NCBI GenBank assembly: GCA_965200245.1
Contig: CBDATS010000005.1
Location: 544,001-608,000 of the forward strand
Direction of reading: 5' to 3'
From: a bacterium
GTDB lineage: Bacteria; UBA8248
DNA: 64,000 nt
The notes below the pieces were generated by a model, which saw nothing but the letters and a program-made list of their open reading frames with translations, searched no databases and was not told where the DNA came from. Each line of letters starts with the position of its first letter. The first letter of the stretch is position 1. Below, one piece after another: positions 29,001 through 34,652 of the stretch. Both the position numbers and the translations under genes were made by a program.

Positions 29001-29174
29001 GCTGATATGTGAGTTGTAGTGAACGAAGCACGTCATGCCCATCCACTATTCGAGCCTACCCCAACTCACGGGAACGCCCGAGGCGTTCATTCAGGAGCTG
29101 CGCAAGTGCGGTCTCAATACGGAGAGCATCGACTTGAAGTCAGGAGAAAACGCAACCATCTAATTTCGCTTCTG

Positions 29175-29618
29175 TTACGCGCCGGGTCTCTCGATGAGTT
29201 CGAGTGTGTTGCCGTCCGGATCCTCGACGTAGACAACGTACCCACCCTTGTTGGGGCCTTGGGTGACGGGCACGGGTGGAGAGACAAACTTCACCCCACG
29301 GGGCGCGAGTGTCTCGTACATCCCTTTGAGATCATTGACATTGTATGCGATATGCGCGCTGCCCACGTTGTTCGTGGCGGTATCTATCTTGACGCCGGGT
29401 GCGCCGACATACTCCACGAGTTCGATATGGTAGTCCACACCCCGGACGTAGATGATGCGAAGGTCGGCACCCGGGATACCAGTCACCTTCTCGCTATAAT
29501 CCTGGGGTCGAGTCTCGTCCGAAACGATAGTAAAACCAAGCATTTCGCAGTACCATTTTGCTATCGCAGAAGCGTCAGAGACCGTAAAACTCGTATGGTT
29601 GATACTCACAAGACCCAT
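29175..29618 (-). CDS. VOC (glyoxalase-like) family protein
   Basis: 'INHTSFTVSD', 'IELVEY', 'HIAYNV' and 'EDPDGNTLELIE'; GGAGG RBS. Confidence 0.88.
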   Translation of the reverse strand: MGLVSINHTSFTVSDASAIAKWYCEMLGFTIVSDETRPQDYSEKVTGIPGADLRIIYVRGVDYHIELVEYVGAPGVKIDTATNNVGSAHIAYNVNDLKGMYETLAPRGVKFVSPPVPVTQGPNKGGYVVYVEDPDGNTLELIERPGA

Positions 29619-29975
29619 CTTGTGCCTCCTTTAAAGCTATCGGTTCGGGAACGCATTCCCCCTGTTTCCGCCGTTTTCAAAGACGCAATTATGGCATAGC
29701 GAGGTGTCCAAATTTCAGAAAAACATCGTGAATTCATCTGAATTTATCGAGGTCGATCGCAGCACCAGAGTGACCACCAAGAAAGGAAATTCAGGGAATT
29801 ATAAACAAAAACATACCAAAGATACCCGAGTTTTTCGCACTGCCAGAGTATCCGTCCCCTCCCCGGCAAATCAGGCGCGTATTCATTGGTTCCGCCGGGG
29901 CGGGGTGACGGCGCACTTCATTTTCGCTACAAATGCTCCCTGTTGTCTCTTCTATTTCCTTTTCGGGCGGACGGT

Positions 29976-31394
29976 ATGATGGCGTATCTGAGCGCGGCGG
30001 CGAACGTGCTCGTTCATGTTCCCGATCTGGTTCGCTACGGCTCGAAACCCTGGCGCGAAGCTCAAGGAAAAGAGCAAGCACCGGGCAGCGAGTTCGTCGG
30101 GTTGCGCTCTTTCAAAGATGCGCTCAGCTACCCACCGAACCAAGCGTTCATCGGTAATATCACGCCAGAGAAAATGAATGACATTCCCTCTCCTTGGTAC
30201 GAGAATCCCCTGCTAGACGCCTCGCACGAAAGCCCCTTTGGGGAAATCCTACCACAGAGTGCCTTCTACACCCTTATTGAGGCGGCGGATCAGTTCGGGC
30301 TAATAATGCTTGATAAGGAACGTATTGATTCAGGCGTTGTGAACTCTGAATCCGCCGCCGCTCTTCTCGATAGAGAAAAACCTGCCAAGGAATACAAGCG
30401 AGAAGAGATTTCAGAACGTATCGAGCGTGGAGAGGCCTTGCCGCTTTTCGTGGCCAGCGAACTCCTTGGGTGCGTTCGCCGCGATCATGACGCGGACGAA
30501 TCCTTGGACGCACGTATTCTTCTGGAGAACCTCGCGGCCAAGGCCAGCGGCGCTTACGCCTTAAGCCGTCTGCTCACGCAGGAGAGCATCGCGCCGGAAC
30601 AGATAGAGTACGTCATCAGTTGCTCGGAAGAGGCGGTAGGGGACCGATACAATCGCGGCGGTGGCAATCTCGCCAAGACCATCGCCGAGATGGCGGGCTG
30701 CGTGAATGCAGCGGGCGTGGACGTCAAGTCTTTCTGCGCGGCGCCTGTCAATGCGCTCGTTCACGCTGCAGCCTTGATCGAGGCGGAGGTCGTTGAGAAC
30801 GCCGTCGTCGTAGGCGGCGGCTCCATGGCGAAACTCGGCATGAAGGCCTACTTCCATCTCGAAAAGGGAGTACCCGTGCTGGAAGACGTATTAGGCGGAT
30901 TGGCGTTTTTTCTCACGAAAAATTCGGGCGATGGTCCTCGGGTGAATCTCGAAATCTCGGGACGCCACGTGATGGGCAAGCCTTCCACGCCCCAAGGACT
31001 TGCGGAGGCGCTCGTGCGCGACCCACTGGCCCGCGCCAGGCGCAAGCTGACGAGCGTCGATAAGTACGCCGTCGAACTGCATAACCCAGAAATCATGCTG
31101 CCCGCCGGTGCGGGAGACGTCGCTGCCGCGAACTATAGAATGCTGGCCGCCTTGGCAGTTATGGGCGGGGAAATCGAACGCGAGGAAATTCCGGGTTTCA
31201 TCAAAACCCACGGGATGCGCGGATTTGCGCCCACACAGGGACACATCCCCGCCGGCGTTCCCTTTCTCGGGCACGCGCTTGAGAGGATGCGAACAGGCGC
31301 GCTTGTGAGTACAATGGTTGTAGCCAAAGGGAGTCTGTTTCTGGGCCGGATGTCCCGCCAGGCCGACGGGGCTTCAGTGCTGTTGGAAACGTGA
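29976..31394 (+). CDS. grdC: Glycine/sarcosine/betaine reductase component C, beta subunit
   Basis: '[12 protein letters not shown]', '[10 protein letters not shown]', '[16 protein letters not shown]', 'FCAAP', 'ELHNPEI', '[10 protein letters not shown]' and 'KGSLFLGRM'. Confidence 0.88.
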
Positions 31395-31426: not shown

Positions 31427-31879
31427 ATGTTTGAGGGCAAAAAGGTGATCGCGTTGGGCGAGCGCGACGGCGTTCCCGGCCCGCTTATCGCGGAATGCCT
31501 CAAGGCAGCGGGTGCAGAGGTCGTGTTCGAAAAGACGGAGTGTTTCGTCTGAACCTCCGCGGGTGCCATGGACCTGGAGAACCAGACCACTATCAAATCG
31601 ATCGCGGATGAAATCGGGGTGGATAATCTGATAGTGGTGGTGGGAATACCCGGTGAAGGCCTTCGGCTCGTAGTCGAAACGCTGACCACCGGGGACCCGA
31701 GTTGGGCCGGGCCCCTGGCGGGAGTTCAGTTGGGGCTCCCCGTGTTCCACATCCTTGAGGAAAAGGTGCGGACCCTTATTCCCGAGGATGTGTACACCGA
31801 GAAACTGCTCATGATGGAAATGGTGCTCGATCTGACGCAGATAGAGAGCGATCTGGCTTCTATGCGAGCGGCGGGCTAG
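31427..31879 (+). CDS. grdA: Glycine/sarcosine/betaine reductase selenoprotein A (150 aa, Sec42)
   Basis: GGAGG RBS; reads [19 protein letters not shown]...TECFV-U(TGA 31550-31552)[11 protein letters not shown]; also '[21 protein letters not shown]'. Confidence 0.93.
31555..31579 (+). promoter_or_regulatory. Putative SECIS hairpin of grdA
   Basis: Bulged stem-loop CUCC..GGGU..C-CAUG-GACCUGGAG immediately 3' of the UGA. Confidence 0.4.
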
Positions 31880-31889
31880 GGGGGCGATC

Positions 31890-33173
31890 ATGTCCATGCG
31901 ACTGGAGATGGGTATTTTTCCCGTCTCAAAAATCATTGTCGGAAAGCGCTTCGCGTATAAAGAAGAGACGCTCACCGTGGACGCGGATGAGCTTCGAGAA
32001 ATCGCTCTGGAAGCTGGCGACCTTAAGAGCGTGAGCTTTCACGCGGGCATGCCGGGCGAATCGGCACGAATAACGAACGTATTGGACTCCGTCGAGCCCC
32101 TCTACAAAGTGAGCGGGTACTCATGTGCCTTTCCAGGATTCATGGGCCCCTCCAAGACCGCGGGCGAAGGCCGCACCCACAAACTCGCTGGGATGTGCGT
32201 CATCAGTTCCACGCATTTCCTAGGGCCCATGACGGGCATCATGAGCTTTCGCGAAGGGATTATCGACATGTGCGGCCCTGGCACAATTCATTGTACGAAT
32301 TCAGAGACCGCGAATCTCGTCGCCTGCTACGAACCGCTGGAAGGCACCTCGAACGAAGCACACGATGACGCCGTACGTCTTGCAACACTCAAAATAGCCT
32401 CCCGGCTGGCCGAACACACGAAGGATATAGAGCCCACGCGGGTCGAGACGTTCGAACTCGCAGATGTCGACCCCGCTCTTCCTCGCGTCGTTTATGTCGA
32501 TCAGATCATGCACCAAGCTTCCATGGTGCAGACTTTCATGTACGGCAAGAACTTTGGGGATTCACTCCCCACCCTCATTCATCCGAACGAGATGCTCGAC
32601 GGCGCGGTCGTTGGAGCGAATTACAAGACGCAGCAGAAGGCACCGACCTACCTCCATTGCAACAAGCCGCTCATATACGAACTCTACCGCCGCCACGGAG
32701 CGGATATCAATTTCACAGGAATGATCATTACACGCGGCCACCACGACAACCAAGCCCTTAAGGAACGCTCGGCGCAATACGTGGCCAAGCTCGCAACGCT
32801 CCTAAAGGCCGACGGCGCGGTTCTCGCCTTCGAGGGTGGCGGCAATTCCACGGTGGACTATTGGCTCACCGTCCAAGCACTCGAGCAGATGGGTGTACGT
32901 GCTGTGCCTATCATCTACGAGGTGGGCCGGCCAGGCTCGGGCGAATTCCCGCTCGTCTTTCACGTGCCGGAAGCCGACTCTATCATCTCCAAGGGCATGC
33001 AGGGGGAGCGCATCGCCGCCCCGGCAGTGGAGCGTGTCATCGGCTCGGAAATCGTTGATTTCTATAACGGCAGGAGCTACAACGTCCGCGAAGCGTTCAC
33101 CCTGTCAGACAGCGACTACTACGCAAACGAGTGGGCGCGGGACATCAACCACATGATTGGCAAGGCGTATTGA
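31890..33173 (+). CDS. Reductase component B alpha/beta proprotein (GrdE/GrdG/GrdI family)
   Basis: 'PGESARIT', 'GEGRTHKL', 'EGIIDMCGPG', 'PTLIHPNEMLDGAVV', 'KERSAQY' and 'EGGGN'. Confidence 0.85.
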   Translation: MSMRLEMGIFPVSKIIVGKRFAYKEETLTVDADELREIALEAGDLKSVSFHAGMPGESARITNVLDSVEPLYKVSGYSCAFPGFMGPSKTAGEGRTHKLAGMCVISSTHFLGPMTGIMSFREGIIDMCGPGTIHCTNSETANLVACYEPLEGTSNEAHDDAVRLATLKIASRLAEHTKDIEPTRVETFELADVDPALPRVVYVDQIMHQASMVQTFMYGKNFGDSLPTLIHPNEMLDGAVVGANYKTQQKAPTYLHCNKPLIYELYRRHGADINFTGMIITRGHHDNQALKERSAQYVAKLATLLKADGAVLAFEGGGNSTVDYWLTVQALEQMGVRAVPIIYEVGRPGSGEFPLVFHVPEADSIISKGMQGERIAAPAVERVIGSEIVDFYNGRSYNVREAFTLSDSDYYANEWARDINHMIGKAY

Positions 33174-33335: not shown

Positions 33336-34652
33336 ATGAGCACTAAATTTCGGGTCGTTCACTATTTGAACCAGTTCTTCGCTGGAGTGGGGGGCGAGGA
33401 TAGGAGCGATCATCCTGCCTCCGTCCTGCCCGGCCCCGTCGGCCCCGGCGTATTACTCGACAAGATATTAAAGGAGGAGGCTGAAGTCGTCGCCACGGTC
33501 TTTGCGGGCGATGGCCATTTTGCCGAAAACGAGGCGTCCTGCGCCACAGCAGCGTTCGCACTCATCAAGGAGCACTCACCCGATCTCCTTATCGCAGGCC
33601 CCGCCTTCAACGCCGGGCGCTACGGGCTCGCCTGCTCCGCCATCTGCCAATCAGCACAAGAGGCGGGCCTTCCCGTCGTCACCGCCATGCACCCGGAGAA
33701 TCCTGGTTTTCCCGCCGCAGGATTCGGTGTTCACACCGTTCCCACCACAGACTCTGCCATCGGCATGGAGGAAGCCCTTGAGGCCGTCGCCCGCCTGGGG
33801 CTCAAGCTCGTCCGGGGTGAGAAGATCGGAAGCGCCGCAGACGAAGGCTATCTCCCGCGCGGTATTCGCTATAACGAAATCGCCGAGTTCCCGGCCTCGC
33901 GACGCGCCGTCGATATGGTCCTGAAGAAAATCCGGGGCGAACCCTACCAGAGCGAACTCGATGTTCCCGTCCTTGAAGAGATAGTGCCTCCAGAACCCGT
34001 TGCCGATCTCAAAAGGGCCCGAATCGCCATCGTATCAGAGGGCGGTATGGTGCCTCCCGACAATCCTGATCGCTTTTCCGGATCGAGAAATGAAAACTGG
34101 GCCACGTATTCCCTGGAAGGAAAAGACGCCCTGCCGGGCGGTGCGTTCATCTCGATACACGGCGGCTTCAACACCGTGTTCGTGAACGAGGAGCCCGACC
34201 GCATGCTCGCCGTCGACGCCTTTCGCAGGCTCGAGAACGAGGGTGAGATCGCAGCGCTCCACGATGATTTCCTGAGTACTTGCGGCAACGGCGGCGCCTT
34301 CACCACCATGGACGGCATCGGCCGAGCCTGGGCCGCAGAATTGAAGAAGGCCGGGGTGGAGGGCGTCGTTCTCCCCGCCACGTGAGGAACCGGCACGCGC
34401 AGCGGGGCTGCGCTGGCGAAAGCTTTGGAAAGAGAGGGCATTCCTACCGTCATTGTCACCTGTCTGCCCGATGTGGCGCGTGACATCGGGGTTAACCGGA
34501 TCGTCAACAACCGCGCCGGGCACTTCCATCATCCTTTTGGCGATCCGTCCCGGACCCCCGAGGCCGAGCGAGAATGGCGCCTGGGCGCGGCTCGCGCGGC
34601 CGTCTCGACGCTTACCAAAACAGTGGACGGCCCCACGGTATTCGAGTACTAG
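33336..34652 (+). CDS. grdB: Reductase selenoprotein B (GrdB/GrdF/GrdH family, 438 aa)
   Basis: 'VVHYLNQFFAGVGGED', 'GPAFNAGRYGLAC' and 'HPENPG'. An in-frame TGA at 34383-34385 joins it to 'GTGTRSGAALAKALEREGIP...HPFGDP'. Confidence 0.9.
34397..34413 (+). promoter_or_regulatory. Putative SECIS hairpin of grdB
   Basis: Perfect 7-bp stem GCGCAGC-GGG-GCUGCGC beginning 11 nt after the UGA. Confidence 0.65.

Follow-up and report, generated by a model that had tools for sequence, protein, structure and literature searches.

A GrdB-like selenoprotein with glycine and serine in place of the textbook cysteines, and its tyrosine-bearing GrdE-like partner

In clostridial glycine reductase, the pyruvoyl group of GrdE binds glycine as a Schiff base, and the selenocysteine (Sec, U) of GrdB attacks the alpha-carbon. 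The resulting carboxymethyl-selenoether is passed to the Sec of GrdA and resolved by the GrdA Cys, and GrdC and GrdD make acetyl phosphate. Here, we describe a cassette of the order grdC-grdA-grdE'-grdB' whose GrdB-like selenoprotein, GrdB', has Gly and Ser at the positions of the two textbook cysteines that follow Sec, and whose GrdE-like subunit, GrdE', has Tyr instead of the Cys that forms the pyruvoyl group. The cassette lies in 64,000 nucleotides of contig CBDATS010000005.1 (positions 544,001 to 608,000; assembly GCA_965200245.1, GTDB lineage UBA8248), hereafter the window, whose coordinates are used throughout.

The GrdB cysteines are described as protecting Sec against oxidation (PMC6778437; PMC10838667). 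The UxxCxxC motif is treated as required in genome papers, and a GrdB without it has been taken as a pseudogene (PMC6778437). GrdB is, moreover, said to function only anaerobically (bioRxiv 10.1101/2022.07.06.499078). The described system that the window pair most resembles is the fluoroacetate reductase of Cloacibacillus porcorum (PMC10838667): FarB is likewise a Sec-containing GrdB homologue without the following cysteines (no CxxC), and FarE is a GrdE homologue without the pyruvoyl-forming cysteines, as is GrdI. For FarB/FarE a Schiff base is considered impossible, and a direct attack of Sec on the carbon has been proposed (PMC10838667). A cysteine-less FarB is hence already in print. What is new here is that UxxGxxS proteins form a separate deep clade, always with an N-Y-K/R GrdE'; that Cys376 and His398 are specific to this clade; that the Ser codon is locked in the stem of the selenocysteine insertion sequence (SECIS); and a first tally of the motif. 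The top-ranked results of our literature search included no paper on the UxxGxxS clade, and none on Grd genes from either Nitrospinota or the symbionts of sponges.

The selenocysteine site and its clade

The features of grdB' are as follows.

33336..34652, plus strand: grdB-like selenoprotein gene (grdB'), 438 aa, matched by TIGR01918 and PF07355
34383..34385, plus strand: UGA codon read as selenocysteine 350, in the same alignment column as the Sec of GrdB, GrdF and GrdH
34392..34403, plus strand: Gly353 (GGC, 34392-34394) and Ser356 (AGC, 34401-34403), in place of the two textbook cysteines
34397..34413, plus strand: predicted SECIS hairpin, GCGCAGC (34397-34403), loop GGG, GCTGCGC (34407-34413), 7 bp

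With TGA read as Sec, 33336-34652 is a single open frame with U350 within ...VVLPAT-U-GTGTRSGAALA..., and the DNA of the site is GCC ACG TGA GGA ACC GGC ACG CGC AGC GGG GCT. An earlier interpretation of the same DNA from its letters (the sequence-only reading) had rendered the site as A-T-U-G-T-G-T-R-S-G-A, and our translation agrees. It had also given STUGTCTRCGA as the textbook motif, and this is what we read in GrdF of Peptoclostridium acidaminophilum, GrdB of Acetoanaerobium noterae, the annotated GrdH of Enterococcus gilvus and a Photobacterium copy. The GGC and AGC codons are each a single base apart from TGC, as that reading had pointed out.

GrdB' scores well above the cut-offs of the superfamily profiles (TIGR01918, 417.8 bits against 65.45; PF07355, 397.5 against 22) and below those of every named enzyme tested: the glycine reductase equivalog TIGR01917 (387.6 against 602.2), sarcosine reductase GrdF (NF040794, 415.8 against 800), betaine reductase GrdH (NF040795, 353.9 against 775) and D-proline reductase PrdB (TIGR04483, 84.3 against 300, with only the C-terminal half matched). 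Its identity to GrdB and GrdF of glycine and sarcosine reductase is 40-43%. PrdB is a Sec protein of the same superfamily in which Ser already takes the place of the second cysteine (U-G-T-C-H-R-S in Terrisporobacter); it differs from GrdB' in being half the size (242 aa), in keeping the Cys at U+3 and in having a pyruvoyl proprotein, PrdA, as its partner. We assign GrdB' to the selenoprotein B superfamily on the basis of the profiles, of an in-frame UGA with a SECIS at the family's Sec column and of the adjacent GrdE-family gene. As judged from sequence, it lacks those defining features of GrdB, GrdF, GrdH, PrdB and Far that were tested, with the exception of the pyruvoyl-less partner of GrdH and the cysteine losses of Far.

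The hairpin begins 11 nt past the UGA, where the sequence-only reading had placed a 7-bp stem, and a 60-nt fold has a minimum free energy of -22.1 kcal/mol (z = -2.0). Across 23 UxxGxxS sequences (RNAalifold), the stem has no broken pairs, and two of its pairs change in a compensatory way: G-C is replaced by U-A or A-U in 6 sequences, and C-G by U-A in 9. With the 438-aa frame open, this upholds the earlier view that gene and SECIS are intact. The Ser356 codon is always AGC; it sits within the 5' arm of the stem, where its partner is the GCU of Ala358. In the canonical clade this codon position is UGC, and the opposite arm has a matching change. Because the codon lies inside a paired stem, a switch between Ser and Cys would also need a change on the opposite arm. 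The source genome has adjacent selA and selB genes and a tRNA-Sec (75.9 bits). RNA evidence is weak: two metatranscriptome libraries, both from one study, have contigs that overlap parts of grdA, grdE' and grdB', one of them beginning at 34304 and spanning the UGA; DNA carry-over is possible, and the study may be the source of the window's DNA.

Could the missing cysteines simply reflect decay within one strain, a sequencing error or a true gene end at the UGA? We consider this highly improbable, since the evidence already contradicts it. Of 51 genomes of the phylum, 30 carry an orthologue (59-87% identity), each with one TGA, and U-G-T-G-T-R-S-G-A is identical in 29 of them. Third codon positions vary among these orthologues (Gly353 is GGC, GGT, GGA or GGG), the 88 codons 3' of the UGA are in frame and conserved, the sequence recurs unchanged in independent DNA contigs, and the Sec machinery of the genome is complete. 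Three observations speak for decay. Public gene calls end nearly all homologues at 349 aa, i.e. at the UGA. The thirtieth orthologue (G045, locus L078) follows the family to U-G-T-G and departs from it in all frames after codon 353, ~150 nt before the end of the locus; this copy is either disrupted or an assembly chimera. The published treatment of a GrdB without UxxCxxC as a pseudogene points the same way. The sequence-only reading had raised the possibilities that close homologues all keep UxxCxxC and that translation terminates at the UGA; the former is not so, and the latter is not supported, given the conserved downstream codons and the covarying SECIS. From the genes, we take UGA350 to be a true selenocysteine codon and not a sign of decay; the branch of the glycine-reductase family to which it belongs is conserved, as yet uncharacterised and, in our view, a different enzyme type.

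Two phylogenies place the variant. In an IQ-TREE analysis of 51 distinct full-length proteins (duplicates and four rows shorter than 420 aa were left out), the 30 distinct genome-derived UxxGxxS proteins make up one side of a branch with SH-aLRT support of 99, and UxxSxxS proteins form a separate clade (support 100). A FastTree analysis of 107 rows, which included metagenome sequences and omitted short rows, duplicates and 13 same-genus rows that were nearly identical, again gave a single UxxGxxS clade, of 24 rows (SH-like support 89) and with four deep sub-lineages. Gly353 and Ser356 are invariant across 24 of 24 UxxGxxS alignment rows. Among the sequences sampled, one deep clade has U-G-[T/S]-G-T-R-S-G-A throughout. 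A paralogue of 48% identity, with U-G-S-G-T-R-S-G-A, is present in three genomes of the genus, and a third type, U-G-T-S-T-R-S-G-A, in five genomes of the family.

The motif was also surveyed in metagenomes by a family-alignment scan. We took the best 80 of 587 confirmed relatives, a sample that is biased toward the query; the site is readable in 77 of these, and three loci end before it. Counted across the UGA, as the sequence-only reading had proposed, UxxCxxC occurs at 23 of the 77 loci and UxxGxxS at 8, set beside the 29 of 30 phylum orthologues with UxxGxxS. The remaining loci have UxxSxxS (19), UxxSxxC (18), UxxGxxC (5), UxxDxxC (3) and UxxCxxG (1). Hence, UxxGxxS is not unique: Ser, Gly and Asp variants at these positions are common among environmental homologues, and the textbook motif is a minority in this biased sample. 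The variants point to many selenoenzymes that are as yet uncharacterised. Such genes should not be named glycine or betaine reductase, nor be cut at the UGA.

The full-length "GrdB" entries in public collections read S-T-W-G-T-C-T-R-C (one with G); these are canonical proteins whose Sec codon was read under a code with TGA as Trp or Gly. One entry of the protein collection, P0094, is a true Cys homologue, which reads C-G-T-G-T-R-C.

The GrdE' partner and the cassette

The gene next to grdB' encodes its putative partner subunit.

31890..33173, plus strand: grdE-like gene (grdE'), non-pyruvoyl type, 427 aa, PF09338 match of 351 bits
32622..32624, plus strand: Tyr245 codon (TAC) of GrdE', where GrdE and GrdG have the Cys that forms the pyruvoyl group

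GrdE' scores 254 bits with the GrdG profile, for which the cut-off is 780. Its G-A-N-Y-K aligns opposite S-G-N-C(-V) of A. noterae GrdE and P. acidaminophilum GrdG. N-Y is present in 48 of 48 UxxGxxS loci that include the partner site, several of which are the same genome retrieved twice, and N-C is seen only beside UxxCxxC (15 loci) or UxxDxxC (1 locus). The four UxxGxxC loci with a visible partner read H-Y, T-Y, N-Y and A-Y. In the protein collection, 113 of the best 120 GrdE' homologues have N-Y, and labels among these 120 include Chloroflexi, Dehalococcoidia, Burkholderiales, Thermodesulfobacteriota and Desulfobaccales. In a representative set clustered at 50%, the whole library gave 985 matches at E<=0.001; the best 150 of these comprise 6 with N-C, 10 with N-Y-[KR], 43 with another x-Y, 10 with x-F, 54 others and 27 without the anchor motif. 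We reject a strict link of the variant to aerobes, because N-Y-K GrdE' homologues are also labelled Desulfobaccales, Thermodesulfobacteriota and Dehalococcoidia.

Two further genes complete the cassette.

29886..31394, plus strand: grdC-like gene (component C beta), NF040746 match of 576 bits (cut-off 450) over residues 35-501
31427..31879, plus strand: grdA (selenoprotein A), which likewise contains an in-frame TGA (31550-31552); PF04723 and NF040748 match past the TGA

The true start of grdC is probably ~30 codons inside the open reading frame (ORF). In GrdC, the thiolase-like FCA[AG]P cysteine region is kept, as an alignment with the E. gilvus and A. noterae proteins shows. Read with TGA as Sec, GrdA has C-F-V-U-T-S-A-G-A-M-D, such that the CxxU motif is retained. 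The order grdC-grdA-grdE'-grdB' is kept in every sufficiently long locus from L034 to L053, with differing flanking genes. The window system shares with GrdB/GrdE and GrdF/GrdG the fold family (PF07355, TIGR01918), the positions of Sec and hairpin, a GrdE-type partner and the CxxU of GrdA. It differs from them in having UxxGxxS rather than UxxCxxC, N-Y rather than N-C and the order C-A-E-B, in having no trxA or trxB in the cluster, and in that GrdD was not found.

In the source genome, the GrdD profile NF040747 has a sole, weak match (20.5 bits, E 2.4e-4, cut-off 350) on a plsX-like gene, and PF02504 finds the same gene. A family search of 41 relatives gave no match to GrdD at E<=1e-20, in a search in which no control genome matched either. 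With an E. gilvus query, tblastn locates GrdD directly after GrdC in the reference loci L064-L066 and in five metagenome loci, four with the canonical motif and one with UxxGxxC. Genes for ackA and pta were not found in the source genome; the corresponding control matches were obtained in 9 of 14 and 10 of 14 genomes. The missing ackA, pta and GrdD argue against acetyl phosphate as the product.

Proposed chemistry of the GrdB'/GrdE' pair

What reaction might such a pair catalyse? By analogy, GrdB'/GrdE' would work most like FarB/FarE, with FarB taken as described in print. The reading that we favour, and hold to be probable by a modest measure, is a Far-like reductase that uses no Schiff base. 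Without a Schiff base to the substrate, neither glycine nor sarcosine would serve as substrate. Sec350 would attack the alpha-carbon of a substituted carboxylate bearing a good leaving group, as proposed for FarB/FarE, and the selenoether would move onto the Sec of GrdA, where the GrdA Cys and a thioredoxin-type reductant would resolve it. GrdC would take up the acyl group, which would leave in a form other than acetyl phosphate. With resolution and reduction in trans, the two helix cysteines would be dispensable. A reductant acting in trans fits with P0206 (534 aa), in which an N-terminal glutaredoxin domain with CxxC is fused to an N-Y-R GrdE-like protein. The TctABC carboxylate transporter genes next to the sister U-G-S-G sub-clade (L168, L146) also speak for this reading.

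GrdB' has further conserved residues that could take part in the chemistry.

34281..34283, plus strand: Cys316 codon; Cys in 20 of 24 UxxGxxS rows; end of strand 311-316 in the model
34461..34463, plus strand: Cys376 codon; clade-specific, 23 of 24 rows; right after strand 371-375 in the model
34527..34529, plus strand: His398 codon; clade-specific, 23 of 24 rows; Pro in most canonical proteins

In the other motif groups, position 376 is mostly Thr, Ala or Ser, position 398 mostly Pro, Thr or Val, and position 316 mostly Val, Ser or Thr. Nearly all members of the family have Cys100 and His275. In an AlphaFold2 model of GrdB' (32-row alignment, pLDDT 88.2), U350 lies between strand 343-347 and helix 351-366, which, on our reading of the topology, is the usual place of a redox motif at a helix N-terminus. 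Judged from the topology, Cys376, His398 and Cys316 probably lie beside Sec. These residues raise a rival explanation, which we regard as possible but on the unlikely side: the cysteines have been relocated, and the usual redox chemistry is kept, with a selenenylsulfide resolved within protein B by Cys376 (with His398) or Cys316 on neighbouring loops. The conservation of the three residues within the clade and their rarity or absence in other motif groups fit this explanation, as do the modelled positions of Cys316, Sec350 and Cys376 at three successive strand ends of one alpha/beta domain. The only protein without Cys376, in locus L146, is also without His398 and carries Cys401. However, the proximity of the three strands is deduced from topology, Cys316 is Thr in one UxxGxxS sub-clade, and the UxxSxxS clade has Ser at both 316 and 376 and manages without either Cys. 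The sequence-only reading had proposed a Sec-only active site with different redox chemistry. A different chemistry is likely, because GrdE' lacks the pyruvoyl-forming Cys and no GrdD was found; the "Sec-only" part is unproven in view of the conserved Cys376, His398 and Cys316, and of Cys100.

Structural comparisons bear little on function. A sequence search of solved structures gave no match for GrdB' or GrdE'. In a Foldseek search of the PDB, the GrdB' model matched only periplasmic-binding-protein-like two-domain structures (TM ~0.2), and VIA-align matched the N-terminal domain only, to generic flavodoxin/receiver-like folds (Z ~10-11); both are functionally uninformative.

Several points weigh against a Far-like reductase without a Schiff base. 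Every chemical step is inferred, and what we observed is gene structure, conservation and paired changes; Sec insertion is likewise predicted here from the genes. The three clade-specific residues may replace the lost cysteines, in which case resolution in trans would be wrong. Tyr or Phe at the GrdE site also occurs with cysteine-containing GrdB (Tyr in L023, L026, L093 and L101; Phe in GrdI), and therefore Tyr is not specific to the Gly variant; on the same ground, we reject strict exclusivity of the Gly353-Tyr245 pairing. The absence of GrdD is read from metagenome-assembled genomes (the source assembly is 95.8% complete with 8.1% contamination) and, for the relatives, from the family search without a positive control. 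No transporter or thioredoxin gene lies beside the window cassette. With respect to Far itself, GrdE' scores only 131 bits with the FarE profile NF053623 (cut-off 675), and neither an antiporter (farA) nor a radical-SAM (farC) gene lies beside the window cassette; the window system is thus not a Far orthologue. In addition, Far uses the ordinary GrdA, GrdC and GrdD of its host, a strict anaerobe (PMC10838667), whereas the window has GrdC and GrdA in the cassette, no GrdD was found, and the genome encodes haem-copper oxidase subunit I.

A non-pyruvoyl GrdE-like subunit in the protein B pair is shared with GrdH/GrdI, and the pair could instead be a betaine-type (quaternary amine) reductase, which, like GrdH/GrdI, would need no pyruvoyl group. 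E. gilvus GrdI is also without the N-C site (it has S-F where GrdE' has N-Y), and GrdI is not a proprotein (PMC10838667). Betaine is plentiful in marine animals, runs labelled as sponge metagenomes contain the same DNA, and some homologues are labelled "betaine reductase" by JGI. Nevertheless, we think this reading improbable. The GrdH score of GrdB' is less than half of the cut-off (354 against 775 bits), and GrdH keeps U-G-T-C-T-R-C and groups with GrdB and GrdF, away from the UxxGxxS clade. A BCCT or Opu-type transporter follows grdH and grdF in reference loci, BCCT in the case of the reference GrdH cluster, and none lies beside the window cassette; the sister sub-clade of the UxxGxxS proteins is instead linked to TctABC carboxylate transporters. 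GrdD, which is present in the reference GrdH cluster and in betaine clusters, was not found in the source genome or, within the limits of the family search noted above, in 41 relatives.

Taking the Far-like reading further, we tentatively propose that UxxGxxS GrdB' with N-Y-K GrdE' makes up a separate class of selenium-dependent reductases, which would also work in oxygen-respiring bacteria, with Tyr at the pyruvoyl position and Sec without helix cysteines. These enzymes might cleave the C-X bond of a substituted carboxylate (e.g. a haloacetate or an onium compound, in a sponge or marine habitat) and hand the acyl group to GrdC without acetyl phosphate, in the service of detoxification or carbon assimilation and not of fermentative ATP synthesis. 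This broader proposal may well be wrong in part or in whole. In a genome with a haem-copper oxidase, a cysteine-free Sec site has thus been kept stably, and the partner subunit has changed to match. The residues of interest are Gly353, Ser356, Cys376 and His398 of GrdB' and Tyr245 of GrdE'.

Surroundings of the cassette and other superfamily members

The cassette's neighbours in the window are an RND efflux pair, a glyoxalase-fold ORF and pyruvate dehydrogenase (PDH) E1. The ORF with the glyoxalase/bleomycin-resistance fold (29175-29618, minus strand) lies just upstream of grdC and overlaps a longer plus-strand ORF (29019-29699) that has no family match and is probably spurious.

The sister sub-clade with the U-G-S-G site adjoins TctABC carboxylate transporter genes: TctC, TctB and TctA with an IclR regulator in L168, and TctC in L146. 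The paralogous cluster in L168 (G022:C1:1198000-1214000) has the order iclR, grdC, grdE', grdB', tctC, tctB, tctA. No grdA was seen between grdC and grdE' in L168, and this cluster probably borrows the GrdA of the main cassette.

The spacer between grdE' and grdB' is 163 bp in the window, and sister genomes have inserts of 0.7-2.5 kb at this place (L035, L041-L045; e.g. L044:3476-6000, L043:4155-6000). The inserts carry an ORF with a PIN domain and fragments of a DNA methylase and of an IS1595-like transposase. Within the operon, the spacer has the appearance of a hot spot for insertion.

The same genome has three more weak matches to the GrdB/PrdB superfamily, each with one in-frame TGA (C8:245140-245523, C4:784917-785270 and C4:1532238-1532771). 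Two of these read U-P-L-C-N-R-S and U-G-L-C-N-R-S, the UxxCxxS pattern of PrdB, and they probably encode small PrdB-like selenoproteins.

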